A DNA stretch of 55,521 nt from Rhodothermia bacterium (GCA_036985715.1 BTQE01000005.1:1-55521); one strand, 5' to 3'; positions 1,867 through 33,394 are shown, numbered from the stretch's first letter. Translations and numbers: made by a program. The notes: generated by a model not told the origin, from the sequence alone.

Positions 1867-2055
1867 ATGATACCGTCCGCCGGGAAAGTGGCGCTTCAAA
1901 TAACGAAGCAGGATAACCGGGTCAGGGTCCTGCCGGAAGGTCTTGTGTTCGAGATGTGCTGTGTAGATCGACACCGCGCGCGAAGAGAGGTGGACATCAA
2001 GTCCGACGTAAATATCTTGTCCAGAGAAGTCGAGCTCTGTAGCTTGAGTCTTCAT
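1867..2055 (-). pseudogene. Truncated IS110-family transposase (first 63 codons)
   Basis: MKTQATELDFSGQDIYVGLDVH...HKTFRQ...LRYLKRHFPGGRYH contains the first RuvC-like (DEDD) Asp motif (YVGLDVH). Similarity ends before the expected YEAG motif. Confidence 0.82.
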
Positions 2056-2144
2056 GGTAAGCCTCGTGATATGGCGGGAGTTGGGACTATTCAAACCCAA
2101 GCTACCCACTTTGTCCAAGGCTTACTGCTTTAACATACCGTCTT

Positions 2145-2157
2145 GTTATGAAGCCGT
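2145..2157 (-). repeat. R'' remnant of the attC of the HigBA cassette
   Basis: Minus-strand ACGGCTTCATAAC overlaps the higA stop and is the exact complement of the cassette start GTTATGAAGCCGT (3664-3652). The rest of the attC is replaced by IS110 sequence. Confidence 0.75.
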
Positions 2158-3243
2158 TTTTGGCGACCAACTATATTTGACCTTTAGGTCGTTGCATTGA
2201 TTAAATCTTAGGATTCTGTCGTGTTGAAGTCGGCCTACTACGATTCCGGGAGCTATGCCAAGTTGATCTGCCAATTCATTAATGTCAGCTTTGGCAAAAG
2301 ACTGATTTGCGACAAAGTTTCGATAATTGTCTGGTGGGATTAGAAAATTTGCAGCCCACCGGTTTGCCGCTTGCTCTTCTTCGCCTTCATTTTTCTCATT
2401 GTCTAAAAAAATAGCTCTTTTTCCATGCAAGAGAACGTGTGCCGCTTCGTGAAAGAAGGTGAACCACAGGTGATCATTGGTCTTATATCTCAGAGAAAGT
2501 TGTATGAGTGCATTACTTGGGCTAATCCATCTGGTGGCCCCACTGACGCAAGATTTTGGTAGTTGTGGAACAAACACCACGGCAACACCTGATTCGGCAC
2601 ACATCGTTTCGAGTTCCGCCAGAAAGACGTCAGGTTTACTTCGAGTTAATGACCGAACACTATTAAGCGCATCGACAAATTTAGACTTGCTAAAAGGAGC
2701 AAGCCTAATCTGATTTGCCCCGAGAATTCCGGCACGTAGCCACGCGCCCAACGAATAATCATTCACATCGAATGCGGAGGACCTCCGAAAAGCCACTTCG
2801 TATCGAGTATACAATTTTTCCCACTGCTCGGGCGACGAAACGCCAAGGTATTGAAGTAGATTTTTTACGTTTTCGGAAGGATCTTTCACCTTAGGGAGAA
2901 AACCCGAGGCGGCCATTTCCTTTAACGGAAACTTCGACGCCCAAGACCTTTCTTTTGCCAAAAGATTGTCCTGGTTTTGACGAGCTAAATATTCTCTAAA
3001 GTATTGTTCTCTGGTATTCCAGAATCGCGCAGGGATCCCTAAAACGAGTTCCAATTCCAACGCGGTTTCCTGAGTAATCGCTGCCTTCCCATTAATAATC
3101 TCATTTATCGTCTTTTTTGGCCTACCCATCCGAGTAGCCAACTCTGCCTGGCTCAGGTTTCGTTCATCGAGCAAATCCTTAAGCGTCGAACCCGGTGTCG
3201 ACACATAGTCAGGCTTGTATTGGTTTGTCACTGACTTAACCAT
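2146..3243 (-). CDS. higA: HigA-family antitoxin, Xre HTH fused to an ImmA/IrrE-type Zn metallopeptidase domain
   Basis: Likely start ATG 3243 (MVKSVTNQYKPDYVSTPG), overlapping the higB stop. HTH SQAELATRMGRPKKTINEIINGKAAIT; HExxH in FFHEAAHVLLH...EEQAANRWA. Confidence 0.88.
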   Translation of the reverse strand: MVKSVTNQYKPDYVSTPGSTLKDLLDERNLSQAELATRMGRPKKTINEIINGKAAITQETALELELVLGIPARFWNTREQYFREYLARQNQDNLLAKERSWASKFPLKEMAASGFLPKVKDPSENVKNLLQYLGVSSPEQWEKLYTRYEVAFRRSSAFDVNDYSLGAWLRAGILGANQIRLAPFSKSKFVDALNSVRSLTRSKPDVFLAELETMCAESGVAVVFVPQLPKSCVSGATRWISPSNALIQLSLRYKTNDHLWFTFFHEAAHVLLHGKRAIFLDNEKNEGEEEQAANRWAANFLIPPDNYRNFVANQSFAKADINELADQLGIAPGIVVGRLQHDRILRFNQCNDLKVKYSWSPKTAS

Positions 3244-3571
3244 GAGTGTCCTCGATTGAAATAATTTTGATTGCCTCGACATTCGACCAGTCGAGTCCTC
3301 CATCCATTTTAACCGGAGGCGGGTGCGGTACAGAAACGAACAGTAACCTATAGGGATGTTCTAAATCCAATGACAATGTCTTTGCCTTGTCTCCCTTTAG
3401 TTCATGACATCTGCCTGGAAGAAGTCTCATTTCTTCCAAATTTGAAACTGCCTGTAAGTTGTCTAGCCTACGGCGTAACGTTCTTGCATGATTTTGACCA
3501 AGTTTCTTGACTGCGTTTTTCGAGTCATTACACAGTTTTTCGAGCTTCCTAGAGTTGTATTCGATATCCAA
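3236..3571 (-). CDS. higB: HigB/RelE-family toxin (killer suppression protein type)
   Basis: MDIEYNSRKLEKLC...RRRLDNLQA...GRCHELKGD...SLDLEHPYRLLF...IEDTH; toxin-first gene order typical of higBA. Confidence 0.88.
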   Translation of the reverse strand: MDIEYNSRKLEKLCNDSKNAVKKLGQNHARTLRRRLDNLQAVSNLEEMRLLPGRCHELKGDKAKTLSLDLEHPYRLLFVSVPHPPPVKMDGGLDWSNVEAIKIISIEDTHG

Positions 3572-3586
3572 GACATCGGATGATAT

Positions 3587-3614
3587 GTTAATAAATTAAC
3601 CTGTGGGGTTAATT
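3587..3614. promoter_or_regulatory. Putative HigA operator palindromes
   Basis: AATTAACC-N5-GGTTAATT (3594-3614) with an overlapping GTTAAT-aa-ATTAAC (3587-3600), just upstream of higB in an AT-rich leader. Confidence 0.6.
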
Positions 3615-3657
3615 AAATAAAATATATACTAATTTCAACTTTGTTCCAAAGACGGCT

Positions 3658-3766
3658 TCATAACGGCTGGCGGATTTGCGGCGAGTAATTCGCTCACCGT
3701 CCTGAAAGTAACCGATTCCGACCGGCTCAGTTAGTCGGGCGAGCCCGCAACATGCGCAGGTTATCT
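3658..3766 (-). repeat. attC site (family B)
   Basis: R'' AGATAAC contains the upstream gene's TAA stop; R' is GTTATGA. Inner pairing ttgcgg/ccgcaa. Shares its R'-proximal arm with 1679-1818. Confidence 0.85.
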
Positions 3767-4396
3767 GGCCTTTCGACGGCTGCCTAATTGGTATGCGATT
3801 CCAAATCTCGACATCCATTGCGTACTCTTGTGGCCAGAATTCGTATCGCCCAAGCGCATCCCAATCTGTCCACCACCGACAAATCTTAGTGTCTGACTTA
3901 AATTGAGCTGTACCCTAACACCTGACGTTACGCTTCTAACTATATCGCTGTGATCCTTTCCGGGATTGCCAACAATTCCGAAGCCGCCCACGTACTTGGC
4001 ACGCAAAAACTGCTGCGAGAGTCCGAGATGGATACTAAAGTTGACTGGATTTGCCGTCAACTGTTGTCGTAACCGAAGGCCAAGCATTCCGGCTCGGTAA
4101 GCGTATGCCACACAGTCTGCGCCGCAGCTCACGAACTCGGTAACACCATCGCTCCAGTATGCCGCATAAAGTGCGGCCGAAAGGGTTTTCCCAGTGTTTG
4201 GGTGAAAGTAAATCGGCACGGAGAACTCGACTTCCGGATAAATTGCGCTCTCAGTTGAACCGCGCAACGGTTCGATCGCACCAAGCGACACGCTAATCAT
4301 CGGTGATGGTTGCTGAGCCCATCCGAGTGTTGATTCTTGGAGTCCGGATACAATAATCAGAGCCGTGACAAGCAGGGCCGTAGAATAATTTCGCAT
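3761..4396 (-). CDS. Cassette-borne secreted protein, putative small outer-membrane beta-barrel
   Basis: Likely start MRNYSTALLVTALII with a signal peptide (..GWA-Q). Amphipathic strands end in SRFGIAYQL. Stop lies inside the attC R''. Confidence 0.6.
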   Translation of the reverse strand: MRNYSTALLVTALIIVSGLQESTLGWAQQPSPMISVSLGAIEPLRGSTESAIYPEVEFSVPIYFHPNTGKTLSAALYAAYWSDGVTEFVSCGADCVAYAYRAGMLGLRLRQQLTANPVNFSIHLGLSQQFLRAKYVGGFGIVGNPGKDHSDIVRSVTSGVRVQLNLSQTLRFVGGGQIGMRLGDTNSGHKSTQWMSRFGIAYQLGSRRKAR

Positions 4397-7346: not shown

Positions 7347-10300
7347 GTGAGAGATCGATTTTTTACAACCCTGGCATCCTGGGCAGAGCACCACACCTGG
7401 CTGATGCTCGGACTGACGCTACTGGTCACCGTGCTGACCGCCGCAATCGCCGGCGGACTTGAGCTAAACATGCAGTTCAAGAGCTTGATGCCCCAGTCGC
7501 ATCCCACAGTTCAGGAGTACGACTTCATCGTAAATAACTACAGTTCAGCAACAAACATCATCGTTGCCGTCAAAGGTGACGAAAATTCGATCAAGTCCTT
7601 TGCCGACGATCTGGTCCCCAAACTCCGGGCGATGACCGAATACGTGAGCCGCGTCGACTACAAGATCAATCGCGAGTTCATGGGCCGGCACGGTTTCATG
7701 CTTTCGAAAGCCCGTGATCTGGATAACAGCAGAAACCTGTTCAGCGATTTGCGTCTGGTACCGTTTCTGACGCGCCTCAACGACAGCTTCGAGCAAACCT
7801 ACATCGCCGACGATGAGGGAATTTCGAACGGTGAAAAAGAGGATAAGGCCGTTCGAGCTCTCGATGGGATCGAAAACTGGCTTCAGACCATGACGCTCTA
7901 TCTGGATGGTGACGGAGACGTCGAAGCCGCTCGCGAAGCCGTCGATCGCATGCTGATCGGTGATCCGTACTTCATTTCGCAGGACAAGGACATTCTGCTT
8001 CTTTTTGCTCAGCCCACGTTCACGCTGAATGAAGTGGATAAATTGATGATGGCTATGAATGCCATCGATTCACAGATCGAAGAACTGGTTTCAAAATATC
8101 CGAATATTGATGCCGGTACGACGGGTCTGATGGCCCTCTCGCGAGACGAATTTAATGCCCTCTCGTCCGACTTGTACGTGACGACGCTCATCGCCTTCAT
8201 ACTCATAATCGGATTGTTCATTGTCAGTTTTCGGATGTGGGCAGCGCCGCTGCTGGCCGGGATCAGTCTTATCGTGGGCCTAATCTGGGCATCCGGTTTC
8301 ATAGCGGTCACAGTGGGCAGCCTTAACATGATGACGTCGATGTTCGCCGTGATTCTCGTCGGTCTTGGCATCGATTACAACATCCACGTGATATCCGGTT
8401 ACACAGAGTTTCGAGCTGAAGGCCACTCGATCTACGACGCCCTCAGAATGGCCCTTGTCAAGACGGGGAATGGAATCGTGATCGGTGCTGTCAGTACCGC
8501 TCTTGCCTTTCTGACCATGCTTATCTCGGAAAACCAGGGTATGAAGGAATTCGCGGTCGTAGTGGGTGGCGGAGTACTCTTCACCATGATCGCGTCTCTG
8601 TTGGTTCTTCCGCCGCTGCTCGTTGCAAGGGACCGTATCAGGGTACGTAGGAAGGGTGAGCCGCGGAGCCTGCGATCGATCTCATACGGACGGGTCGGAA
8701 ACCTGGCCGAGTGGCTTGCTGCCAGGCCCATTCAGGTGCTCGCTACGCTGTTCGTCGTGACAGTGCTCATGGCCTATAGTGCGTTTACTATTTCCTTCGA
8801 TTACAATTACCTGAATCTGGAGCCCGTTGGACTTAAATCCATCGAGTTGCAGGATGAGATCATTGATGAGTTTGATATCACTCCTGATATCCTTCTGGTT
8901 ACGGCTGCGTCCGTGGAGGAGGCACGGTCTATCTCCGACCAGGCTAAAGAACTCAAGTCGGTAGGACTGGTCATGAGCATCTCAGACTACGTTCCTTCCT
9001 CCGAGCAACATGAGAGACGCCTGCCCTATATCCGAAAGATTCGTTCCGATCTCGCGAACGGCACTACTCTCCCTGCCATGACCGAGGACGATGTTGATTT
9101 GCTTCTCAACGAGTTGTATCGCATGGAGGACAACGTCATCGAGCTCGCCCAACTCGCCTTTGCGGGCGGACAGGACAAGGTCGATCGTAAAGCCGAGCGG
9201 ATTGTAGGAGATCTCGAGCAAACCGCCGCCGAGCGATCAGGTCTCTTTCGCCCTCTCGTGGAGCGGCTGGATTCCGATCGGTCCTCAGGTGCAGCCCGTC
9301 TGGCTGCTTTCGAACGAGACTACGAGCCGTTTCTTCGGACGGCAGCTCTTGGGATGACATCTGAAGAGATCATTACGTTACCCGATCTCCCTGCCAGCAT
9401 TCGTAATCAGTTTGTGAGTAACGACGGACGGCAATTTCTTCTGTCGATTTACCCGAGACAACAAGTCTGGGATTTAGAATTTCTCGGGCGGTTGACCAAG
9501 CAAATGCACCGGATTGATCCGCGTGTGACGGGTATGCCACCCATCTTCTTCGTGCTTGTCGAGTATATCGCCAAGGATGGACGCCGTGCCGCTCTCCTTA
9601 CTATGGTTCTCGTTTTTCTGCTACTGTGGATTGATTTTCGAAGCATCAACTCTGCTGTCGCAGCAATGCTGTCGTTGGCCGTCGGAGCCATCTGGATGGT
9701 CGGACTCATGAATGTATTCGGAATGAAATTCAACCTTCTCAACGTAATCGGAATTCCTCTCATTCTGGGGATAGGAATCGACGACGCCGTACATATTCTA
9801 AATCGTTATCGGGTGGAAGGACGAGGTCGTATCAATGTCGTGTACGCAAGCACTGGAAAGGCAATCATATTGACCTCGATCACGACAATGCTTGCGTTCG
9901 GATCCCTGACTTTCGCAACCTATCGCGGGCTGGGCAGTCTCGGCCTGACACTGGCGATCGGCGTAGGTACGGCTCTCTTGACCTCGCTTCTTATGCTTCC
10001 GGCACTGCTTGGTCTGTTGGAGAAGTACACCAGGTATGGAATACAATCGACGGATCGACCGAGAAAAAAGGGTGCAGCGATCATCGCGATAGTTTTCTTG
10101 TTTCCGATTTTGATGTGGTCGAACACAGTACGTGCGCAGGTGCCTACCGTCGACGTGCTCGATATTATCAGACGAGTCGACGCCAACGAACGAACCGAGT
10201 CCAGTCGAATTATCGGTAAACAGATTATTACTACGTCTTCCGGGCGTAAGAGAACTCTGGAGATAGAATCATATGCTAAGGGGGGCAATGAGAAATCTCT

Positions 10301-10832
10301 GATAGTATACACGGGACCTGCCCGTGTTCGGGGTGATAAAATTTTGATGCTGAATGACGGGGACGATATCTGGTTTTATACGCCAAAAACAGACCGCGTT
10401 CGACATCTGGCCTCGCACGCGAGACGGCAGAAAGTGCAAGGAAGCGATTTCTCCTATGAGGATTTGAGTACGGGAAAATTCGAGGAAGACTATACTCACA
10501 CGCTCCTGGGACAGGTTGAAATGGATGGAGTCGACTACTACAAAATTGAAGCAATTCCAGATGAGTCCGGTCCCTCGTATTCTAAAATAATCGTGTGGGT
10601 GGAGACCACTCGATACGTTGTACGCAGAATCGATTACTACGACGACGGGGCGCTTCTCAAACGCCTGACGAACAGCGATATTCGAGAATTGGAAGGGCAT
10701 ATTCTGCCTTTCAAAATGCTCATGGAAAACCTTCGGGACGGATCACGTACGGAATTCGAATTTAGCGAGATGACCCTGAATATCGAGTTGGAGGACCAGC
10801 TTTTTACGACCGAAAACCTGAAAAGGCGGTAG
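7347..10832 (+). CDS. MMPL/RND-family transporter fused to a C-terminal LolA-like (outer-membrane lipoprotein-sorting) domain
   Basis: Two RND repeats with GLGIDYNIH and GIGIDDAVH motifs. After about aa 930 comes a LolA-like domain (SLIVYTGPARVRG...WFYTPKTDRVR...GSDFSYEDL...LFTTENLKR). Confidence 0.9.
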   Translation: MRDRFFTTLASWAEHHTWLMLGLTLLVTVLTAAIAGGLELNMQFKSLMPQSHPTVQEYDFIVNNYSSATNIIVAVKGDENSIKSFADDLVPKLRAMTEYVSRVDYKINREFMGRHGFMLSKARDLDNSRNLFSDLRLVPFLTRLNDSFEQTYIADDEGISNGEKEDKAVRALDGIENWLQTMTLYLDGDGDVEAAREAVDRMLIGDPYFISQDKDILLLFAQPTFTLNEVDKLMMAMNAIDSQIEELVSKYPNIDAGTTGLMALSRDEFNALSSDLYVTTLIAFILIIGLFIVSFRMWAAPLLAGISLIVGLIWASGFIAVTVGSLNMMTSMFAVILVGLGIDYNIHVISGYTEFRAEGHSIYDALRMALVKTGNGIVIGAVSTALAFLTMLISENQGMKEFAVVVGGGVLFTMIASLLVLPPLLVARDRIRVRRKGEPRSLRSISYGRVGNLAEWLAARPIQVLATLFVVTVLMAYSAFTISFDYNYLNLEPVGLKSIELQDEIIDEFDITPDILLVTAASVEEARSISDQAKELKSVGLVMSISDYVPSSEQHERRLPYIRKIRSDLANGTTLPAMTEDDVDLLLNELYRMEDNVIELAQLAFAGGQDKVDRKAERIVGDLEQTAAERSGLFRPLVERLDSDRSSGAARLAAFERDYEPFLRTAALGMTSEEIITLPDLPASIRNQFVSNDGRQFLLSIYPRQQVWDLEFLGRLTKQMHRIDPRVTGMPPIFFVLVEYIAKDGRRAALLTMVLVFLLLWIDFRSINSAVAAMLSLAVGAIWMVGLMNVFGMKFNLLNVIGIPLILGIGIDDAVHILNRYRVEGRGRINVVYASTGKAIILTSITTMLAFGSLTFATYRGLGSLGLTLAIGVGTALLTSLLMLPALLGLLEKYTRYGIQSTDRPRKKGAAIIAIVFLFPILMWSNTVRAQVPTVDVLDIIRRVDANERTESSRIIGKQIITTSSGRKRTLEIESYAKGGNEKSLIVYTGPARVRGDKILMLNDGDDIWFYTPKTDRVRHLASHARRQKVQGSDFSYEDLSTGKFEEDYTHTLLGQVEMDGVDYYKIEAIPDESGPSYSKIIVWVETTRYVVRRIDYYDDGALLKRLTNSDIRELEGHILPFKMLMENLRDGSRTEFEFSEMTLNIELEDQLFTTENLKRR

Positions 10833-23013: not shown

Positions 23014-24153
23014 TCAGCTGCCCTCGTAGAGCCGGAGCTGAGCTCCAGAAATCCAGATCTGTTCGATTCGAGACGCGGGTATTTCAAATTTTTCCGACAG
23101 ACTCGAAATATCGGATGAAGACAGTTGTGCAATGCTCTCGTAAGAAGCCAAACCCAATTCGCGGAGATCTCTGAATTCGCCGTCCGTAAGGCCGAGGAGA
23201 ATCTGCAGGCCGACCGCTTTAGTCTCCGAGCTGGATTCATCCGGGTCCAACGTTTCGGAATCGCCCTCGTCCAGATTTAGGAGAGGGAATAAATCGGTGA
23301 GAGATTTGAATTGAGGAAACTCGGGGATCGTGATATCGCCGGTTTCAATCTGCCGTTCACCATGTTTTTGATCCGAAGAAGGCTCGGCTTCTGGAGGGGT
23401 GGGCCCTTTCGCGGCTGATTCTACCTCGCTTGTGCCGATAGTTGAGCTGATTTCACCAAATATGTAGGAAATGATGTTCGTAGCCCAATCAGTAACTGAT
23501 TCCACTTTTTCGGACGGTTCGCGCGCGGGCTCCGCTTTTTCGTACGGTTCGCGCTCGGGCTCTGCTTTTTCGGACGGTTCGCTTCCGGGTGCCTTGCTTT
23601 CGCCCTTTTCGCTCTCGGATGAAGCAGGGGTTATCGGGGAATCGTCTGACTCATTATCGGGTGCGTCCGGCGCCACATTTTCAGACGCGTCCATTTCTTC
23701 GGAAATTGTTTCGGAAGATGCTTCGGAAAACGATTCGGTACTGAATTCAACGTCCTCAATTTCATAGACAAACCCGGCAGCCTCGCCCGGTCCACGTTTC
23801 AACGACTCGATCTCATCTTGAAGAATCCGGAGGTCGAGATCGTGCTCCTCTTTCGTGATGCTGATCTCAAGAGATTTCTGCTCGAGTTCTTCGCGGAGCA
23901 GAGTGATGGTGGCCTCAAGCGTATCAGAATTATCAGTTCGTTTCTGCGCTTTCATAGCCGCTCGAATGCGGGCAAATTCTTTCTCTCTATTCCCGAGCGC
24001 CGTTTCTCTGGCTTCGAACAATCCAAGCTCTTTTTTGTGACGGACGCGATACAGGAAAAAGCCGCCGGCTATTCCAGCTGCCAACCAGATGATCGTCAGA
24101 ATGATGATCTCAATAGAATCGGGGATAGCGTCTATGAGAAGTACGGGACTCAA
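23014..24153 (-). CDS. Membrane-anchored coiled-coil/acidic protein with a C-terminal HhH-like domain
   Basis: N-terminal TM, coiled coil, disordered acidic linker with repeats, C-terminal LRELGLASYESIAQLS...RIEQIWISGA. Confidence 0.6.
   Translation of the reverse strand: MSPVLLIDAIPDSIEIIILTIIWLAAGIAGGFFLYRVRHKKELGLFEARETALGNREKEFARIRAAMKAQKRTDNSDTLEATITLLREELEQKSLEISITKEEHDLDLRILQDEIESLKRGPGEAAGFVYEIEDVEFSTESFSEASSETISEEMDASENVAPDAPDNESDDSPITPASSESEKGESKAPGSEPSEKAEPEREPYEKAEPAREPSEKVESVTDWATNIISYIFGEISSTIGTSEVESAAKGPTPPEAEPSSDQKHGERQIETGDITIPEFPQFKSLTDLFPLLNLDEGDSETLDPDESSSETKAVGLQILLGLTDGEFRDLRELGLASYESIAQLSSSDISSLSEKFEIPASRIEQIWISGAQLRLYEGS
23501..23590. repeat. In-frame 30-bp tandem repeat, about 3 copies
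   Basis: tcc(a/g)ctttttcg(g/t)acggttcgcg..cgggc units encoding EPSEKAEPER/EPYEKAEPAR/EPSEKVES. Confidence 0.9.
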
Positions 24154-24468: not shown

Positions 24469-24852
24469 ATGCCCTTCGGAACGGTCAGAATTAAGAACGC
24501 TGTTTTTTACGCCCATCATGGCGTATTGAAAGAAGAACATCGAATCGGCGGTCGCTACGAGGTCGACGTCGAGATGAAATTGGATTTCGAGGCGGCTGCT
24601 GCCGACGATGACCTGAACCACACGGTCGACTATGAACACGTTTACACGCTGATTCGGGATATTGTCACAACCAACAAGTTTTATCTGATTGAGAGACTCG
24701 CATATCTGATAGCTCAGGATATTCTTGAGGCAAGTCCGATTGTTACAGAGATCGAGGTCAGTGTAAGAAAAGCGAATCCGCCAGTGGGCGGACCATGCGA
24801 TTGTGCAGAAGCAACGTATCGGACCAGCCGGGCGCGGACCGACAGTCAGTAG
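24469..24852 (+). CDS. folB: Dihydroneopterin aldolase
   Basis: FYAHHGVLKEE...DDLNHTVDY...LIERLA...VRKANPP. Confidence 0.95.
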   Translation: MPFGTVRIKNAVFYAHHGVLKEEHRIGGRYEVDVEMKLDFEAAAADDDLNHTVDYEHVYTLIRDIVTTNKFYLIERLAYLIAQDILEASPIVTEIEVSVRKANPPVGGPCDCAEATYRTSRARTDSQ

Positions 24853-27800
24853 AAAAGTCCCACGCCGATAATGATCGTGGTCTCCTCCTCGGAGAAATTG
24901 ATCGTTGCGGTGAATACGGAGAGATTGTACAGATTGGCCCAAAATCCGACTCCATAGCCCTGGTGCCATACCGACGAATTTTCTCCATCGGTCCACACGC
25001 GACCGTTGTCTACGAATGCAAGGGCTCCGGCTGAGCCCACGGCCAACAGCGTTGAGTATCGAAAAGTTGTGTTCGAATCTCGAAGCTCTGATAAAACGCA
25101 GTTCGGCCGGCAAAGCGAGTGCTGCGCCAGCCTCTCAGATTATTTCTCCCACCGAGTGTACTTGATCTGTAAAATGGAAATTCTCCGATATTGTGACGAA
25201 CACCCACTCTGGCAGCGAAGGTGTGCTGTGTCAGCGAGACCGGAGTCAGGTACAAGGAGAAATCGGACGATATCTCAGTGAAATCGGGCGTTGACTCATG
25301 CAAACCAAATCTGAGATGCAGCCGGTTTTCCCAGAAAAATCCCTGTCTCGGAAAGACCGCAGAGTCGCGAACATCAACCTTGATTCCCGATTCAAATCCG
25401 AGAAAGGATTCGTCTCCGAACGATGTCGGAGCGATACCCGCCTGTGGAAGACCCACAAACCGAAGCGAGTCTTTCTTGATATCGGTGCCCTCCAATCTTG
25501 GCCCGACATAGAATTCCAGAAACCCACCCACAGGCTTAATAAATCGAATCCCAACCACGGTCTCAGAAAATCGGGCTTGATAAAATCTGGCATCCTTAGC
25601 AGTATTGGGACTTTCGTTTCCGAGTCCATAATAGTTGCGGATATTATTGGGCGTCCGAATGGAGGCTTCAACACCAATATCCCAGCCATTCAAGCGATTG
25701 GTAAAGCGCCCCTCATAGGCCACATTAAACGCCTGCGTTCTGGCAGCGAGATTGGCTCGAAAGGAGTGCCTGTTGTCGAACGGCGGGCGCCTGAAGCTGT
25801 AACGTGTGAACGTGGTACCGCCACCGATGAAGAGTCCATCATCCTGATTCCGACCGAAGAATAGAGACGGCATGAATTCCGGGTATCCGTACTCGCGGGG
25901 ATCATAGCGGTTAACCAGTGGATCATCAGACACTTGCACGGAGATGGCCGGCCCCAGTTGAATCTGAGTCTCGAATGGCACATCGTAGACAACGAAGCTA
26001 TTCCTGCGGGCCAATGGGCCGGATTTATCTATGAATTGATCTGCGCCGGTCCCACCGATGGCTCGAATGCGAATGCCTCCTTTTGCATTTCCGCTTACGA
26101 TAAAAACATCATTCCCACCGAGTCCGTACAGTCGTACTTCCTTTGTTTCAGAACCGAGAAAGATTCTCCGAAAAAGCTCTTTTCGAATTTCTCCTTCCTT
26201 GGATGTCTTGTACATGACAACTTCAGTCCGATCGCCACTGAGCTTTTGAATCTCGAATCGCTCATGCTTATTGGATCCCACTACGTCCGGAAATCGACTG
26301 ATGATTTCATAGTACTCTTCGGCTGCATCTGGCAATTTTTCCCTCCGAACCCTGAGGAGGTGACGAAATTCGTCTGCATATAATTTCAGGATCGGTTCAG
26401 GAAAATCGCTTACAGCCGAATCGATGACTTCATCGGTGACTCGGTCTTGAATATCACGTGCAATTTCCAACCAGTCGCTCCTGGTGAGAGACGTCGTGAA
26501 CCTTCTATCCTGAGGTCGTCCGTTCCGGGTCAAGCCCCTGATATACCCGTAGCTCTCTCGAAAATCTTGATTCTTGGCGAGAACAAATCGAGATTTAGCA
26601 ATGCTTGGAAAAATTCCATTCATACGACTCATGGCCCAATCTCGATCTCGAGGGATCGCGCGATAGCGTTTTCCTTTGCTGCCCTCAGCAGGAAATTCAG
26701 CCCAGCGCCACTGATCTGAATGTCGATCCCAGTCGGAGATGTACATGTCAAAGAGGCGAGCTCGGGCGAAGAAACGCTCATCGACGCGATAATCATTGTC
26801 GCTCGCAATTTTTTTCGTCATAGACACGCTGCCGATAACTTTTTTGGATCTTCCAAATGTCGGCGCGTGAGACATGTCGTCGTCCGGTCGCTCCTCAAAC
26901 AGCATTATCTGGTCGGCAACCACATCCCTGAAAGGTCCAAAACGATCGTCTTTTGGGACAAGGAAGATCTTCGGATTGGTGTGGTAGACACCCGCACCAT
27001 GAGCAAGTTTAGGTACAACAATAGGTGCGTACGGGTGCAAGATGGCATACTGGTCAACCACAATATTAGCCGCGAGGGTCTCTTCCAGTCCCGGCGGCAA
27101 ACTTTTCGTAGGATCTTTTGATACGGATCGTAGAACAAATTGCTTTCCCTGCGAATCGCGCAACCGGAGGGAGGTGGTCTGAAGTCCGCCGCCCCTTTTA
27201 ATGGGTGTCAGGCCTCCAGACTCGCTGCCTATGTCAAACACTGGAAAGTCGACTTCAGCCGTCCAGGCTTTCCTGTTTTCAGAGCCGAAGAAGAAATTGT
27301 GGAGACCGCCAGCGGCAAGCGAAGGATTCGCGGCACGCCGAACGGTTGAATCCGGTGGGATCAACAGTTGCTGCTCGTCTTCAACGATGATGGGTTCGGT
27401 AACTACTTCGGGAGCGGGACCTTCGATCTGAGCATGATAAAGAAGACGTCCTTCCGGGGTGTTTTCGTCGCTTCCCCAAGCCTCAAGCCACATCTCACCG
27501 TTTGCATAAAATCGAATTCGGATGAAACCTTTTCCGCCGTACGTAAAACGAGCATTTCTACCTGCAGCTACATAGTCAGATTTTGATCCAGCTCCACTGA
27601 CGACATGATGGACATGATCCTCGTAGAAGTATTGCAGGTTGTGTTCATGTCCTGCTGCGTAGATCAATCTGGATTCATGGGTTTTGAAGATGGCGTCCAA
27701 AGCGCTTATCAAAGAGCGATATTTGGGGTGAGAAAAGTCTTGCGGTCCTCCCATGGCGCGCCGAAGAATAGGGTAGAGGGAGCCGATGATCGGTAGCGGC

Positions 27801-28603
27801 ACGTACCATCCATCCTTCAGGGCGGTAAGCGGAAACAAATGGTCCTTAATCGAGAAATGTCCACCGTGTCTACCGTTAGATCTAATGGGGTGGTGAGCGA
27901 CCACGACCAGGTCGTCTTTTCGACGCTTGGTTACGATTTCCTGAAGCTCTAGAATCAGATCGGCATCTTCTTTGATATCGGCTGAACCCGAATCCCCGTA
28001 CGGTTTCACGGCACCCGTCATCCACCACTCGGTATCGAGCACGATCAGATATAAATTATCTTCCAGTTTTACTTCAACGGGACCCGGTAATCCATTGTCT
28101 GGTAGAAACGCATTCCTGTTATTCAAGTATGATTCGACAAATTCTTCCTGTCGGTTGACGAGATCCACTCTTTTTGTTGAGCCCCTGCCCCAATCGTGAT
28201 TTCCCGGTACGAATACGACTCGACCTTTGTAATTCTTGACGGCATCCAACTGGGCACGCAGTCGCATCTCGGCGAATGCCCGGCTTGAAGATGAGGAATC
28301 GGGAAGGCCGCAACAGTACACGTTGTCACCAAGGAAGACGACGGTACCGTTAGAGTCGGCTTCCTGTGTCATCCGTTGAAGCAATCGCAGCGTCGGCTCG
28401 GATGAGGAAGAGGCGGACCCTCCTGCATCACCGATGAGATATACCTCGTGCTTCAGCTCTTCAATCGAAGGAGGTGCAGCGGGTAGGCTCGTCCGATCAA
28501 ATGGAGAGATATAGACAGACGACGCGGTGCATCCGGCCAGAATGAGCAGAACGATCGGCACAAGCTTGTAGCGATGCTTTCCAGCCGTGTAGAACCAGCT
28601 CAT
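24846..28603 (-). CDS. Lipoprotein with calcineurin-like metallophosphoesterase + kinase-like domain + Omp85/BamA-TamA barrel; 1-nt frameshift at about 25058-25065
   Basis: LAGC lipobox; GDAG, GDNVY, GNHDW and GHEH motifs; DWDRHSDQW; barrel motif LGGRNNLRGW. The true C-terminus (FVDNGRVW...IIGVGLFY) is in ORF 24846-25046 in another frame. Confidence 0.85.
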
Positions 28604-28607
28604 ACGA

Positions 28608-29498
28608 TCAAGGCCCTTTCTCTGAGATTTGTGGGGAATATTTCACCAGGACTGCTCGGCTGCCGGCGCCCTCCGAAGCAAGAATCAAGGATCCGTCTGG
28701 CATAAAAGCAATGCCTTCGGGCTGCCGTACAATACTCTTATTCAACTTTTGTACCGCCAGTATTTTGCCCGTCATATTCGTAACAATCAGCAGTCGATTC
28801 GGCGAAGATAACAGAAATAGATGGCCGCTTTCAGGATGCACTGCGATGGCTGATGGTTTGAATCGCGAATGCCGGATACGCTTGCCAGCGAAGGCGGCCG
28901 ACAAGCTATCACTTGAAAGTACAAAGAGAGGCTGCTCGCTTACACGCTTGGTGTGAACATCGAAGCTGTAGACGGCCCTGGAGCGGCGAATTTTCTTACC
29001 TGCGTAGTCCTTGCAAACAACAAACAGGGTGCCGGACCTCGGGTCGGACGCTAGTCCTTCAGAATTGCAACGTCTCGACAAACGTGTTCGGATACGCTCG
29101 GACTGTATTCGTTTGCCCCACGTTCTGCGATCGGAACTGAACGTGAACAGGTCCCCGTCGCTCCGGAGGACAAAGAGTTGGCTCCCGAGTAATTCAACGC
29201 CCTCAAAGTCTCCCCGCCCACCAAACTTTACTGAATCCACGATTTTTCCGGTTTCCACATTGAGCACGAATAAGGTTCCATTTTCATCCTGAACCGCGGC
29301 CACATGGATAGAATCCAGGGGCGCGAGTCCGGAGATTTCATCCAGTTCGTGAGGGAGTTTGAAGATGGCATCGGGCTTTTCCAGGCGAAACGGAATTATG
29401 TCGACACTCGAAAGACCAGTCGAGGCGTTGGCCAGGAATGAAAGTGAAACGAGAGACCGTATCAGAAAAAGAAACAGATGGTATCCAGGAATCAGCAT
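28608..29498 (-). CDS. SdiA-regulated/YjiK-like secreted beta-propeller (phytase-like)
   Basis: Signal peptide; LDEISGL, AVQDE, GDFEGV, NSEGLA, FKPSAIAVHP, QPEGIAF, ASEG repeats. Confidence 0.82.
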   Translation of the reverse strand: MLIPGYHLFLFLIRSLVSLSFLANASTGLSSVDIIPFRLEKPDAIFKLPHELDEISGLAPLDSIHVAAVQDENGTLFVLNVETGKIVDSVKFGGRGDFEGVELLGSQLFVLRSDGDLFTFSSDRRTWGKRIQSERIRTRLSRRCNSEGLASDPRSGTLFVVCKDYAGKKIRRSRAVYSFDVHTKRVSEQPLFVLSSDSLSAAFAGKRIRHSRFKPSAIAVHPESGHLFLLSSPNRLLIVTNMTGKILAVQKLNKSIVRQPEGIAFMPDGSLILASEGAGSRAVLVKYSPQISEKGP

Positions 29499-29665: not shown

Positions 29666-30451
29666 ATGGAGCCTAACGAGAAGTTGAATCGAGATCAGTC
29701 CGAGCCAGAAGCGGGTTCAAACGAGGAGTCAGAATCATCCGCTGCGGATGTGTCGAAGGATTCGACTGCTTTTTCGGCGGCATCCGACTCACTGGAATCG
29801 TCCGTTTCCACGAAGAAGCAGAAAAAGAAAAAAGACGGTCTCGGCACATCTCGGGGAATCGAAACCATATTCAGGACTTCTTATAGAGTCCACATGAATC
29901 TGAGTTCGCTAGCAGATGCCAAGGCAAATATCATGATCAGTATCAATGGGCTCATCATTTCTATCATAATCGCTGCGATTTCTCCAAAGATCGATACGAA
30001 CCCCTGGTTGCTTCTTCCCACGACCATTATGCTTTTGGGTTCACTGATTTCGATCGTCTACGCGGTTCGTGCGGCCAGGCCAAGAGTAAGCAGCCAAATA
30101 GTGTCACTCGACGATGCGGGAAGTAAGCGAACGAACATTCTCTTTTTCGGACACTTCACGAATATGACTGAAGATGAGTTCGTTTTAGGTATGTCCAATC
30201 TGCTCTCAGATCAGACCTCGCTTTATCAGAATATGATCAGGGACATATATGGTCTAGGTCAGGTTCTGAAACGAAAATTTTCGTTACTAAGAATTTCCTA
30301 TACCGTATTCATGGTAGGCCTGATCCTTGGCATTCTGGCGTTCATATCAACGTATACATGGATCGTTATTAGTCTCGGTCCGGAAGAGTTATCGTCGATT
30401 TTACCATCCGAAGGCCCAACACTTCTCGCTAGCATGGGATTCGCAATATGA
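29666..30451 (+). CDS. Pycsar-effector-like (DUF5706/PycTM) membrane protein without an HD domain
   Basis: RGIETIFRTSYRVH..LSSLADAKANIMISIN, two TMs, ARPR, NILFFGHF, LGQVLKRKFSLLRISY, then a third TM. Confidence 0.82.
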   Translation: MEPNEKLNRDQSEPEAGSNEESESSAADVSKDSTAFSAASDSLESSVSTKKQKKKKDGLGTSRGIETIFRTSYRVHMNLSSLADAKANIMISINGLIISIIIAAISPKIDTNPWLLLPTTIMLLGSLISIVYAVRAARPRVSSQIVSLDDAGSKRTNILFFGHFTNMTEDEFVLGMSNLLSDQTSLYQNMIRDIYGLGQVLKRKFSLLRISYTVFMVGLILGILAFISTYTWIVISLGPEELSSILPSEGPTLLASMGFAI

Positions 30452-30969
30452 AAACGGTCATCCTGCTTCGGCATGGAAAATCAGATTGGGATGCCGATTA
30501 CGTTGGCGATCACCGGAGGCCCCTCGCCGGGCGTGGACAGAAAGCTTCGATTAAAGTCGGTAAATTCCTTGCGAGAACGAACCAGTTGCCCGGACTCGTG
30601 CTCTGCTCAACGGCCTTGAGAACGCGGGAAACTCTGGAGTTGGCCATGGATGCAGGAGAATGGACGGATGTAGATGTCAAATACGACAATACTATCTACC
30701 ACGCAGGCTACGATCAGATGCTCAGGTGTTTGGCGGCTCTGCCGGATGAGGTGGATCGGGTCATGGTTGTAGGACACGAACCGACAGCCTCACTTCTGGC
30801 CGGTCAGTTGATCGGCGGCGCTTCTCTCAATTTTCCAACTGCGGCAGTCGCTCGAATTGATCTAAACCTCGAACATTGGAAAAGCTGTCGCTCGGGCGTA
30901 GGCACACTCATATGGCTCATTAGTCCGCGTCTCCTAAAGAAAGGGATCAAGATATCTAAGAAGATTTGA
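30448..30969 (+). CDS. sixA: SixA-like histidine phosphatase
   Basis: LLRHGKSDW...D..RPL..RG, STALRTRET, VGHEP, FPTA. ATGA-coupled to the effector gene. Confidence 0.9.
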   Translation: MKTVILLRHGKSDWDADYVGDHRRPLAGRGQKASIKVGKFLARTNQLPGLVLCSTALRTRETLELAMDAGEWTDVDVKYDNTIYHAGYDQMLRCLAALPDEVDRVMVVGHEPTASLLAGQLIGGASLNFPTAAVARIDLNLEHWKSCRSGVGTLIWLISPRLLKKGIKISKKI

Positions 30970-33394
30970 TTTCTTCCGATTGGAAAGAACTGGATTCCAT
31001 AACCAGTTCCATGTCTTCACGTTCTTTCAGGTCCAGATCTGCAACCGGTTTGTTTTCAGCGACCTTGACCCGAAGTGCTTTCAGTCCGTGAACTCCCTGA
31101 AGCTGTTCAAGCTGAAGGTATTCGACTCCGGCTTCAACATACCCGGCAGCCTGCAAGTAATCCAGAAATCGGACGTACTCGTCTGCCTCTGCCTCCTGGG
31201 AATAGACGATGGCGATCATCCCAGGCTGCGTTAGACGCTCATTGGTGCTGGCAATCCGTACTTTGTCAATTCGTTTTTTGACGATTTCATACCGGATATT
31301 GTAGGCGCCGTCTACGTCAAACTTCTTCTCATCAATTCGAAAGCGAATCGAAAGAGGAGCTGACTGGACAAGTACGAGATGGGCCGTTTCCAGTGGCACC
31401 TCCAAGTGCGGTTTGAGCTTATTCATTTCCCAAACGACTCCAGCCATCGAAGTGAGCTGCCAGAGTTTGAGGTTTTTCAAATCCAGCTCATCAAATTCTC
31501 CACTTTCCTGTAAGGCAGAGCCAGCATAGATATTATACTCGACTCCGTCTGTTTTATACTTTTCGAAGTAATGAGGTACCATTGCCTGAGCTTCTTCCTC
31601 TCGCTGATCCAGGAAACTTGAGATGGTGTCATTCACGGCGGTCACACTGTCTTCAAACGCTTTTCGCTTCTTATAGACAACCCCGAGTTTTTCATCCAGC
31701 GCCTCTCGGTAAACGTCAACCTTGTCAGCGACAGTCTGAGAATACGCTCGTAGCCGATCAAACAATGGCTCGACTTCAGTCTGAAGAAGTAGAATGAGTG
31801 CGCGTTCGTCACCCGCTCTCGTCCCGGCGACCAATTCCTCGATATGCCTGCTCAGTCGATACCCTATCTCGTCGAGAGAAGGTCTCGGTTTGGAAACGCT
31901 GGCTTCGATAATCACAGACAACGCTAAACCCAGTTGTTCTACGAGATCATCTCTAATGGCGGTACTACGAAGATCAGACGATCCACGTATGTCGGTCATC
32001 CCGTAAAGCGGGTGTACATTTTCAAAAACAATGCCCGCGACTTCTCCCTGTTCACTTGAATTCTCTGAGAGAAGACGCGAGAGCGCCGCTTCTCTAAACT
32101 TCCACTCGACGACCGGGTGGATGGCCGTATACTGTTTTTTAATAATGGCCTGGACGCGATCTTCCTGTTCCTCCAGACTCCGATTGACGGACGTGGACAG
32201 GAGAGAAGTTATTTCATGGAGTTGTCGTGATTGCATCGGACCAATGTCGCAGCAGTTCGTCGATGCAAGCTCAAGAACCCCTACCACGTCATCCTTATTG
32301 ATCAAAGAGGCGAGGTAAATATTGCGAAAGCCCAACTCTTGAAGACGTCGTTCAAACGCTGTGTTTTTTTCCCGTTTGTTCAGGTCTTCGACATAAATAT
32401 GCCCGCCTGATCGAATGACTTCAGCATAGTAGGACTCTTGCCAGTTCTCACATTTCGGCAAGTCGGATTGAAGAAGTAGACTTCGTCCAATCGCTCTGGC
32501 CCCCGACACGCTTCCACAGCGACAACGGTCCAAAGCTATGAGGCCCAGGCGTAAATCTGGCAGCGCGAGGAGTTCCCGGATATGAGACTGCAGTCGATTC
32601 AGGTTTTCGTCTCCCGACAACGCGTCTTTCAGAAGCAGTGCATTCTTGAGTCTTGAAAGAACCTCTTGCTGAGTCACGTTAATGGCAGTCATCACGACGA
32701 ATCCATGAAACTCGAAATGCTCGGGTGGCAAAATTTCCATCCACAATTCGAGATTCAACGGTTCTGCCAAGAGACGGCGACGGTCCTCTTCTGACAAGTC
32801 AGGAATCGAATTCGGCGTACTAATCGAGACGAATTCCGGGTCGATAATTATTTTGTAGTACTCATTCAGACCCGTTTCTACGTCGACGAGTTCGATCACA
32901 AAATCAATGGGTTGCTCGACCTTCAAATCGTAGATGGATGAAGCAATCTTGTGATACGCGTTCATGGTCTTTCCGCGCATCATCTCATCCACGCCTACCT
33001 TGGCGCCATGAATGTGAACATGGAGCAGAAATTTTTCGAGAATTCCCAACTCGTCGAACAGACTTGTCGAATAAAACGAGTGAACGGCGAACGGCACGAA
33101 GGCCGATGCAATAATATTGTCCTGAAGAGCCGGGGGAAAAACGGCGGTCATCATCAATTCAAGAAGCTCTGGATGCCGTCTCAGATCTTCGAGTGAAACC
33201 TGAGACGTTTTTAGCTCCGGAGCGTTTTCCAGTTGGGTTAACACCTCCATTGCGATTGCGGCGTTGGTCGTCGACTCGGATGAAGCGCGTTGCTCCCAGA
33301 AATCGATCAGCTTTTGCAGCGAGGCAAAGCGTCGAAATGGAAATAAATCATCGAATGCTTGTACGTCAGCCGTACCGCGTATTGGGGGTGTCAT
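30956..33394 (-). CDS. GAF-domain protein with a putative class III nucleotide-cyclase-like C-terminus
   Basis: GAF region (VEDL...GFRNIYLASL...VVGVLELAS), then YGMTDIRGSS, EKYKTDGVEY, KFDVDGAYNIR, PGMIAIVYSQ, LQGVHGLKALRV. The cyclase call is inference. Confidence 0.75.
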   Translation of the reverse strand: MTPPIRGTADVQAFDDLFPFRRFASLQKLIDFWEQRASSESTTNAAIAMEVLTQLENAPELKTSQVSLEDLRRHPELLELMMTAVFPPALQDNIIASAFVPFAVHSFYSTSLFDELGILEKFLLHVHIHGAKVGVDEMMRGKTMNAYHKIASSIYDLKVEQPIDFVIELVDVETGLNEYYKIIIDPEFVSISTPNSIPDLSEEDRRRLLAEPLNLELWMEILPPEHFEFHGFVVMTAINVTQQEVLSRLKNALLLKDALSGDENLNRLQSHIRELLALPDLRLGLIALDRCRCGSVSGARAIGRSLLLQSDLPKCENWQESYYAEVIRSGGHIYVEDLNKREKNTAFERRLQELGFRNIYLASLINKDDVVGVLELASTNCCDIGPMQSRQLHEITSLLSTSVNRSLEEQEDRVQAIIKKQYTAIHPVVEWKFREAALSRLLSENSSEQGEVAGIVFENVHPLYGMTDIRGSSDLRSTAIRDDLVEQLGLALSVIIEASVSKPRPSLDEIGYRLSRHIEELVAGTRAGDERALILLLQTEVEPLFDRLRAYSQTVADKVDVYREALDEKLGVVYKKRKAFEDSVTAVNDTISSFLDQREEEAQAMVPHYFEKYKTDGVEYNIYAGSALQESGEFDELDLKNLKLWQLTSMAGVVWEMNKLKPHLEVPLETAHLVLVQSAPLSIRFRIDEKKFDVDGAYNIRYEIVKKRIDKVRIASTNERLTQPGMIAIVYSQEAEADEYVRFLDYLQAAGYVEAGVEYLQLEQLQGVHGLKALRVKVAENKPVADLDLKEREDMELVMESSSFQSEEIKSS

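Follow-up and report, generated by a model that had tools for sequence, protein, structure and literature searches.

A conserved orphan domain with kinase-like motifs between a phosphatase module and an Omp85 barrel in exported proteins of Bacteroidota and their relatives

The 55,521-nucleotide stretch of Rhodothermia bacterium DNA examined here (GCA_036985715.1 BTQE01000005.1:1-55521; 'the window') encodes on its minus strand a predicted outer-membrane lipoprotein in which three large modules share one chain: a metallophosphoesterase of the purple-acid-phosphatase type, an orphan middle domain and a carboxy-terminal Omp85 barrel (Table 1). The middle domain is the main subject of this report, as it is the core and the best conserved part of a whole protein family and carries motifs that recall those of kinase-like folds. 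The open reading frame (25010..28603, 1197 residues) stops early relative to the conserved end of the barrel. At its amino terminus, basic residues and a hydrophobic stretch precede the sequence LILAGC, which carries the lipobox pattern [LVI][ASTG][GA]C, and a single hydrophobic segment is seen at residues 12-30; a first-pass annotation of the sequence had called the product a lipoprotein, and this agrees with it. By a crude pattern, a lipobox is present in 27 of 67 full-length relatives from genomes, and the rest begin with what resemble ordinary signal peptides.

Table 1. Coordinates of the modules and motifs of the window protein and of neighbouring features
Feature	Position	Strand	Basis or remark
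Signal peptide with lipobox LILAGC, residues 1-25, Cys25	28529..28603	-	Translation
Lipobox LILAGC, residues 20-25	28529-28546	-	Translation
Metallophosphoesterase, purple-acid-phosphatase type, residues ~46-395	27419..28468	-	Pfam, PDB, motif blocks
Phosphoesterase block GDAGG	28418-28432	-	Translation
Phosphoesterase block GDNVY	28316-28330	-	Translation
Phosphoesterase block GNHDW	28190-28204	-	Translation
Phosphoesterase block VAHHP	27887-27901	-	Translation
Phosphoesterase block GHEHN	27638-27652	-	Translation
Orphan middle-domain core, residues 436-700	26504..27298	-	Gly-rich loop, VLRSxxK, EERPD, DWDRHxDQWRW, PRDRD
KRGGGLQT, residues 469-476	27176-27199	-	Translation
FVLRSVSK, residues 489-496	27116-27139	-	Translation
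DWDRHSDQW, residues 624-632	26708-26734	-	Translation
IPRDRD, residues 650-655	26639-26656	-	Translation
Helical sub-domain, residues 701-780	26264..26503	-	Crude propensity profile (190 aligned), i,i+4 couplings
Beta-rich linker, residues 781-910, with GGxGxD-like GLGGNDVF and GGTGADQF	25874..26263	-	Motif coordinates
Omp85 barrel, part in frame with the start, residues 911-1181, loop-6-like NLRGWR	25061..25873	-	Pfam, PDB profile, hhalign
Last 72 residues of the barrel and stop codon	24846..25064	-	Three-frame translation; tblastn P0002 1181-1252, 86% identity
Terminator-like hairpin 3' of the shifted-frame stop	24775..24794	-	Consensus scan
Secreted beta-propeller protein (SdiA-regulated/phytase-like)	28608..29498	-	Pfam PF06977 E 4e-12; 4 nt from the start codon
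PycTM-like membrane protein, three hydrophobic segments, without HD domain	29666..30451	+	Pfam PycTM E 3e-29; PADLOC PycTM E 1e-21
SixA-like histidine phosphatase	30448..30969	+	Pfam His_Phos_1; NCBIfam sixA E 6e-15, below cut-off; overlaps the PycTM-like gene by 4 nt

The amino-terminal module is readily classified. Residues 54-254 match the Pfam family Metallophos (PF00149) with 32.6 bits against a cut-off of 21.5, and its only relatives in the PDB are mammalian purple or tartrate-resistant acid phosphatases and GAP50; the match to purple acid phosphatases has an E value of 1.4e-4 with the single sequence and of 1.5e-9 with a 48-sequence profile. All five purple-acid-phosphatase blocks and all seven ligands (residues 59, 93, 96, 135, 238, 319 and 321) are intact, so that the complete calcineurin-like motif set read earlier from the sequence can be confirmed and assigned to the purple-acid-phosphatase type.

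For the region that follows, residues ~436-910, searches of Pfam, NCBIfam, the PDB and the ESM Atlas give no match that lies outside its own family. No recurrent Pfam family is found at E<=1 in the window protein, or at E<=10 in 13 stand-alone members and in 47 middle domains from other genomes; no NCBIfam model matches the middle domain up to E<=10; and neither phmmer nor hmmsearch finds a relative for it in the PDB. In the ESM Atlas, searched by way of the stand-alone member P0288, only unnamed clusters of the same family appear, at 0.99, and the best named cluster lies at 0.76, below lead level. Two apparent leads were rejected. The name 'GWxTD domain-containing protein', given to two UniRef entries and some Atlas clusters, is unsupported by any NCBIfam match at E<=10, and a PDB match to HDAC6 (E 2.6) is due to a chance DWD.H string.

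The middle domain is marked by motifs that exceed chance. The four strings to which the first-pass annotation had drawn attention (KRGGGLQT, FVLRSVSK, DWDRHSDQW and IPRDRD) all lie on the minus strand between the phosphatase and the barrel. The pattern D[RK]H..[NQ], which the third of them fits, occurs in 75 of 80 family open reading frames from other genomes and in about 1 of 80 shuffled family sequences; it also occurs in 1 of 288 other open reading frames of at least 300 residues from the same loci, and that one is itself a family member, leaving 0 of 287 unrelated frames. Across 329 aligned middle domains, G440, P524, R616, D619, D624, W625, W632 and D653 are invariant, and R492, K496, E570, R627 and D655 are kept in 328. 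Conservation is concentrated here: among 190 full-length members, columns that are at least 97% identical make up 29 of the 265 positions of the core, whereas the phosphatase has 8 such columns in 350 and the barrel 10 in 271, and eight tested motif residues of the middle domain are all intact in 185 of the 190.

The family defined by this domain is large. Among 8000 candidates scored, 4193 proteins are members at E<=1e-3; the family amounts to 2872 clusters at 50% identity, and at least 606 of 609 pattern matches are confirmed when one genome is taken per species, in Bacteroidota, Rhodothermota and Balneolota. These numbers show the architecture to be common and not unusual. A set of 80 genome loci, which is biased towards the query, is made up of Cytophagales (42), unplaced Bacteroidota (7), Saprospirales (6), Rhodothermales (4), Chitinophagales (4), Flavobacteriales (4), Balneolales (3), Bacteroidales (3), Marinilabiliales (3), Sphingobacteriales (3) and Chlorobiota (1). 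The window protein itself is closest to proteins named as Rhodothermales.

Family members can be broadly classified by the modules that accompany the middle domain. The motif DW.R...[QN]W is present in 244 of 266 collected proteins, and these comprise 191 with phosphatase, middle domain and barrel, 23 with middle domain and barrel, 11 with the middle domain alone, and 19 partial sequences. Pfam scans of five proteins of ~870 residues find Omp85 without Metallophos in four and neither in the fifth. The stand-alone middle domains, of ~530 residues, start with signal peptides or lipoboxes, and complete genomes of Pontibacter and Hymenobacter encode them alongside the full-length protein (P0284, P0288 and others); in Pontibacter aquaedesilientis two of them lie in tandem (locus L026, 4182-5780 and 5812-7482). 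A distant homologue with middle domain and barrel (819 residues, 23% identity, annotated 'hypothetical protein') is encoded on a Parabacteroides distasonis plasmid (NZ_OY725747.1; locus L082, 5920-8379). In the members examined, the middle domain always stands behind an export signal.

Databases name these proteins 'BamA/TamA family outer membrane protein', 'metallophosphoesterase' or 'hypothetical protein'. We found no description of the architecture or of the middle domain in the literature searched, a search that left most subscription journals outside. A word search of the accessible text of the Heinz and Lithgow survey of Omp85 proteins, the TamL paper, the PlpD paper and a 2025 paper on the Bacteroidota BAM complex finds no phosphatase fusion, and the single mention of 'phosphatase' in the accessible text of the PlpD paper is unrelated. 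The Riemerella metallophosphoesterase, as far as the accessible text describes it, is an enzyme secreted by the type IX system and has no Omp85 fusion (PMC13595192). We are dealing with a large, undescribed family of envelope proteins.

The phosphatase module follows a different pattern of conservation. In the alignment of 190 full-length proteins, all seven ligand positions are intact in 123; the other 67 have one or more changed, and 57 of these have three or more. Middle domains are unaffected by these losses for the most part, since their eight residues are intact in 63 of the 67 members with a changed phosphatase. When the state 'dead phosphatase' is mapped on a FastTree tree of 140 middle domains, 21 changes are counted, of which at least 15 are forced by well-supported branches, indicating that phosphatase decay is recurrent. 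The phosphatase is therefore an accessory, and often a relic, and the decayed domain itself is retained in the chain.

These results bear on the proposal that a true ATP-dependent kinase and a phosphatase exert opposing activities on one substrate from a single protein, a version of the opposing phosphotransfer activities raised in the first-pass annotation. The motifs do resemble those of kinases, and the window protein, which is of the intact-phosphatase kind, has both sets of motifs intact, as do 122 of the 190 full-length members. An obligate kinase/phosphatase pair is nevertheless not supported: the 57 members with three or more of the seven ligands changed, the repeated changes on the tree and the existence of forms with no phosphatase at all argue against it. 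To this must be added the location of the domain behind an export signal, where a supply of ATP is not known, and the presence of Arg and Gln at the positions of the kinase Lys and Asn. We regard two opposing activities of this kind as very improbable.

What, then, is the fold of the middle domain? Its motifs follow one another as G471/G472, R492 twenty residues on, K496, D517, a predicted helix, D624-W-D626-R-H-x-D-Q631 and D653-R-D655. This succession of a Gly-rich loop, a basic residue, an acidic residue of a helix, a D...N/Q loop and a D-x-D motif is the order of a kinase-like core. In PI4KII-alpha, for instance, the G-loop at 130-136, K152, the catalytic loop at 308-315 as well as the activation loop from 344 are arranged in a comparable way, according to the accessible part of its structural description (PMC3974213). 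Of particular interest is the Parabacteroides homologue, in which D624, D653 and R654 are kept while R492 is replaced by Lys and Q631 by Asn; these are the canonical residues of kinase-like cores, and we count them in favour of such a fold.

Coevolution provides a second line of evidence. A mean-field analysis of 407 sequences (effective number 308) over 335 columns yields 62 pairs that score higher than any pair in a column-shuffled control, whose maximum served as the threshold; an initial run dominated by gap-rich columns was discarded. The pair 483-489 describes one hairpin, and the pairs 547-567 and 543-571 a second. Strand 488-494 is coupled to the helix that follows it (494-528), and that helix in turn to residues just past D653-R-D655 (529-658 and 522-656), with 622-657 as a further pair. 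R480, R572, R652 and D630 form a mutually coupled set (480-630, 480-572, 572-652 and 480-652), and twelve couplings connect the helix before DWDRH with helix 701-722. The couplings between motifs suggest that separate motifs meet at one site between the beta-rich and the helical parts, to which the strand after the Gly-rich loop, EERPD, the DWDRHxDQ loop and PRDRD contribute.

Judging from motif order and couplings, the middle domain probably has a kinase-like fold. The reading that we prefer for the protein as a whole, and hold with middling confidence, is that of an anchored envelope protein with a kinase-like catalytic middle domain and an optional phosphatase.

Several observations weigh against this reading. 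No kinase family is matched in sequence and profile searches of Pfam, NCBIfam and the PDB, and hhalign gives a probability of only 0.2 against HipA (both for the single sequence and for a low-diversity profile of 12 rows) and of 0.1 against the window's own fructosamine kinase. The segments that meet in the couplings were named under the kinase hypothesis itself; the pairs 493-565 and 491-567, which would place strand 488-494 beside 561-571, do not rise above the shuffled maximum; and strand 561-571 couples with three other strands, leaving the order of the sheet ambiguous. The kinase Lys and Asn positions are taken by Arg (R492) and Gln (Q631). D624 is invariant, but the DRH-type Asp is not universal, since members that stand alone or are distant have Ser, Gly or Asn in place of D626, and the Parabacteroides homologue has lost both the Gly-rich loop and E570. 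The periplasm is not known to offer ATP to an extracytoplasmic kinase, and in the window gene the end of the barrel is out of frame. The abundant Trp and acidic residues, finally, would equally suit an enzyme that cleaves glycans or phosphodiesters.

The last point leads to a different, possibly new fold, in which the kinase-like motifs are coincidental and the domain is, for example, a hydrolase or lyase whose substrate is a glycan, lipopolysaccharide or a phosphodiester. Asp, Arg and Trp, the kinds of residue kept invariant here (D619, D624, W625, W632 and D653), are typical of many sugar-binding active sites, and the failure of every kinase profile and PDB chain to match at any threshold used, the variable DRH-type Asp and the ambiguous sheet order are all as this alternative would have it. 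Coincidence does not readily account for the kinase-like order of five elements, for the Lys and Asn of the distant homologue, or for the couplings of the helix after 488-494 to residues past D653 and of 480 to 630, which fit a kinase-like core. We therefore consider a different fold possible but rather doubtful. A homology to HipA specifically is rejected as far as tested, with the limit that the HipA profile is shallow (its search returned only relatives of at least 73% identity); the loop of Escherichia coli HipA reads ATDGHAKN.

A kinase-like fold need not mean a kinase. Because the domain is extracytoplasmic and has Arg and Gln in place of Lys and Asn, a classical ATP-driven kinase is the less likely outcome, and on the sequence evidence a true ATP-dependent kinase appears remote.

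The carboxy-terminal module is a BamA/TamA-like barrel, as the first-pass annotation had proposed. Pfam Omp85 (PF01103) matches residues 915-1180 with 36.6 bits against a cut-off of 24, the NCBIfam models Omp85_fam and BamA match only below their cut-offs, and PDB profile searches find 9ccg ('POTRA domain-containing protein', E 2.5e-8) and the BamA structure 4k3c (E 1.6e-5). With hhalign, the barrel aligns to residues 563-793 of E. coli BamA (E 3.2e-4, probability 39%) including the RG[FW] motif of loop 6, to which NLRGWR corresponds; the carboxy-terminal ...GLFY end is present only in the shifted frame. No POTRA family is found in the window protein by Pfam at E<=1, and in the hhalign comparison with E. 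coli BamA nothing but the barrel aligns; a divergent POTRA could still lie within residues 781-910. In relatives, the GGxGxD-like motifs of this linker (~830-855) give three weak RTX/serralysin-C matches at E 0.05-0.3, below any cut-off. Pfam at E<=1 likewise finds no patatin in the window protein, which thus lacks the type Vd make-up of a patatin, one POTRA and a barrel.

With no POTRA recognised between the enzyme modules and the barrel, the middle domain might instead be non-catalytic: it might sense a ligand, be a pseudo-enzyme, or take the place of the POTRA as a docking platform, for example for the secreted beta-propeller encoded directly upstream in 19 of 79 loci, which matches BamB weakly and in part (E 9e-6, far below cut-off). 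Retention of dead phosphatase domains suggests that structural roles exist in the family. Near-absolute conservation, falling on charged residues that coevolution clusters at one site, is the pattern of an active site, and the stand-alone forms have no barrel to serve; a non-catalytic role is accordingly hard to credit.

The reading frame of the window gene requires comment, as the first-pass annotation had treated 24846..28603 as one protein gene. The minus strand and the conserved end at 24846 stand; the single frame does not, since three-frame translation places the barrel end ...GVGLFY and its stop codon (24846-24848) in another frame than 25010..28603. The closest relative, P0002 (1252 residues, 87% identical in the middle domain), was used as a tblastn query, and its residues 1-1181 align in one frame (to ~25061) and residues 1181-1252 in a second (~25064 to 24849), with 82% and 86% identity in the flanks of the junction and no other stop or gap in 3.7 kb. 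This switch implies that one base is missing at ~25061-25064, in or beside a T run of the minus strand, so that the last 72 barrel residues and the aromatic carboxy terminus fall out of frame. Present data are equally compatible with a sequencing error and with a true frameshift.

If the frameshift is real, the gene could be a pseudogene that yields no functional protein, its barrel lacking the last strands and the carboxy-terminal signal. The one base fewer than in P0002 and the change of frame at ~25061-25064 are what such a gene would show. It would be the single defect in 3.7 kb, between fully conserved flanks and with all catalytic residues intact, and it lies in or next to a T run, where base-calling errors are frequent. 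A pseudogene is hence possible, with the balance of these points against it. Downstream of the shifted-frame stop lies a terminator-like hairpin; such sites are as frequent in the region as expected from shuffling, and the hairpin is weak evidence when taken alone.

How might the intact protein work? On the preferred reading, that of a kinase-like catalyst anchored in the envelope, the chain would be exported by its (lipo)protein signal peptide, and the Omp85 barrel in the outer membrane would anchor the two amino-terminal enzyme modules on the periplasmic side, by analogy with the patatin domain of PlpD. The middle domain, of ~350 residues, would be the conserved catalyst, a two-lobed protein-kinase-like fold of the PI4K-II/HipA type, with a cleft lined by the Gly-rich loop, R480, R492/K496, R572, D624-W-D626-R-H-x-D-Q631 and R652-D653-R654-D655. 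This cleft may bind a phosphate-bearing or nucleotide ligand and act on an envelope substrate by transfer of a phosphoryl or nucleotidyl group or by hydrolysis. The intact purple-acid-type phosphatase of the window protein could then remove phosphate from the same or a related substrate, as an optional second activity.

The side of the membrane can be argued differently. The barrel might bring the amino-terminal modules out to the surface of the cell, in the manner of type V passengers, for phosphate scavenging, which would be compatible with any chemistry of the middle domain. Purple acid phosphatases are typically secreted phosphate scavengers (PMC4436580, accessible text), and type Vd proteins likewise begin with the enzyme and end with the barrel; the enzyme domain of their prototype, PlpD, has itself been shown to stay in the periplasm (PMC11116518, accessible text for both points). 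Two folded domains of ~850 residues would need to pass the barrel, the amino terminus is predicted to be lipid-anchored, and the stand-alone forms have no barrel to pass. Surface export therefore seems unlikely.

The genes around the family gene speak of phosphate and nucleotide chemistry at the envelope. Neighbours were counted up to three genes away from the family gene, in the 79 of the 80 loci where it was found; these counts overstate the number of independent events because many come from related genera. The beta-propeller gene of the window is probably in the same operon as the family gene. Its homologues lie near the family gene in 20 loci, in 19 of them directly upstream on the same strand, which makes the beta-propeller a possible partner protein. 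The PycTM-like gene is divergent from this pair and has homologues in 53 loci, in several orders. Most are HD+PycTM fusions of ~400 residues; as in the window, the gene lacks the HD domain in Rhodothermales and Balneolales, and it is split in four loci. Homologues of the His_Phos_1 protein are found in 11 loci, plus 4 of a second cluster, and other neighbours include class III nucleotide cyclases (15), DUF6268 proteins (14), polyphosphate kinase 1 (10) and PAP2 proteins (5).

PycTM domains also occur in the 2TM defence effectors of Pycsar and CBASS, and a class III cyclase adjoins in some of the present cases (15 loci); the PycTM-like gene near the family gene looks like a housekeeping use of a 'defence' module. 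A link between an intact phosphatase and a PycTM-like neighbour, suggested by raw counts of 42/50 versus 4/12, fails on independent pairs (6 pairs, median p 1) and was rejected. In the most far-reaching form of our proposal, the middle domain would form a branch of the protein-kinase-like fold that is new and extracytoplasmic, tethered by Omp85 barrels under the outer membrane throughout Bacteroidota and their relatives; it would modify an envelope component (such as lipopolysaccharide, a lipid or a protein of the outer membrane) by transfer of a phosphoryl or nucleotidyl group, with a donor that is not cytoplasmic ATP; and it would work with the conserved inner-membrane PycTM-like or HD protein as a trans-envelope module. 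As a whole this is speculative and improbable.

Other features of the window are recorded here in their own right. An 812-residue protein at 30956-33394 (minus strand) has no match in Pfam, NCBIfam or the PDB, and its relatives lie near the family gene in 8 of the 80 loci. Positions 23475-23618 hold four tandem 30-nucleotide units inside a 379-residue open reading frame (23014-24153, minus strand) that matches no Pfam family and is without relatives in the 80 loci. Positions 2001-4000 have a G+C content of 0.454, against ~0.51 elsewhere, and an open reading frame there (2146-3303, minus strand) joins HTH_3 to an IrrE/M78 peptidase domain; this region may be the remnant of a mobile element. A 1161-residue fusion at 7347-10832 (plus strand) combines an MMPL/RND-type transporter with a carboxy-terminal LolA-like domain. 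Searches of the window for Rfam families and tRNA genes gave none.

Whatever its fold, the middle domain is part of several thousand known proteins and is met in Bacteroidota from soil, marine and gut habitats; neither Pfam nor NCBIfam has a model for it, and its annotation is 'hypothetical'. The annotated phosphatase, from which these proteins take their name, has kept its residues less strictly than the middle domain has kept those that resemble an active site. Since the middle domain is the conserved core, annotations such as 'metallophosphoesterase' and 'BamA/TamA family outer membrane protein' name accessory parts and miss the core. If it is a kinase-like enzyme outside the cytoplasm, it raises a question that has no textbook answer: what drives periplasmic phosphotransfer across a whole phylum? 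If the proposed arrangement is true, it would also be the second example, after PlpD, of Omp85 barrels that anchor enzymes instead of assembling proteins.

Comparison with known systems places each module in context. The phosphatase has its best PDB matches among the tartrate-resistant (type 5) purple acid phosphatases (1war, 1ute and 1qfc), from which it differs in that the match is weak and partial, that it is fused to two further modules, and that its family has often lost the ligands. E. coli UshA and CpdB, periplasmic proteins with a metallophosphoesterase and, after it, a second domain in which the nucleotide substrate is held, offer a possible model for cooperation between modules; they are soluble, and their second domain, the 5'-nucleotidase C-terminal domain, is not found in the window protein.

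Among kinase-like folds, the middle domain and PI4K-II appear to have a D-R-H-x-x-N/Q-type loop in common. The two also agree in the order and rough spacing of the Gly-rich loop, basic residue, catalytic loop and metal-binding Asp, and the structural neighbours of PI4K-II include CtkA, Fam20 and actin-fragmin kinase (PMC3974213, accessible text). With PI4K-II, CtkA, HipA, Fam20C and actin-fragmin kinase, the middle domain shares no detectable sequence or profile similarity, and it differs from them by its Arg and Gln in the places of Lys and Asn and by its extracytoplasmic location. A comparable case is SEAE1, a PI-kinase-like family of Bacteroidota that was found only by structure, with an HHpred E value of 250 (bioRxiv 10.64898/2026.09.18.752743). 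In the accessible text, SEAE1 is, like the middle-domain family, widespread in Bacteroidota, invisible to profiles and associated with a phosphatase (in its case a neighbouring PAP2 gene), and it has a D-x-x-x-x-N loop, a D-x-D ~20 residues on and a basic residue that pairs with the second Asp. It differs in being cytoplasmic and stand-alone, in having Lys and Asn, and in its much shorter spacing (K140 to D216), as compared by description only.

The barrel is homologous to those of BamA, TamA and TamL and has the RG[FWY]-type motif of their loop 6, and lipid-anchored Omp85 proteins are known in Bacteroidota (Heinz and Lithgow, PMC4104836; TamL, PMC12045153; accessible text of both). Unlike these proteins, the window protein has no recognised POTRA and carries ~900 residues of enzyme-like modules. 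It resembles PlpD, the type Vd protein of Pseudomonas aeruginosa, which also combines an amino-terminal enzyme with a carboxy-terminal Omp85 barrel; since the PlpD enzyme stays periplasmic, its barrel is an anchor and not an assembly machine. PlpD has a patatin-like lipase and a POTRA, whereas the window protein has a metallophosphoesterase, an orphan domain and no recognisable POTRA. Thus, an enzyme tethered to an Omp85 barrel is a known kind of protein, and what is new, within the literature searched, is the combination of a phosphatase with the orphan middle domain.

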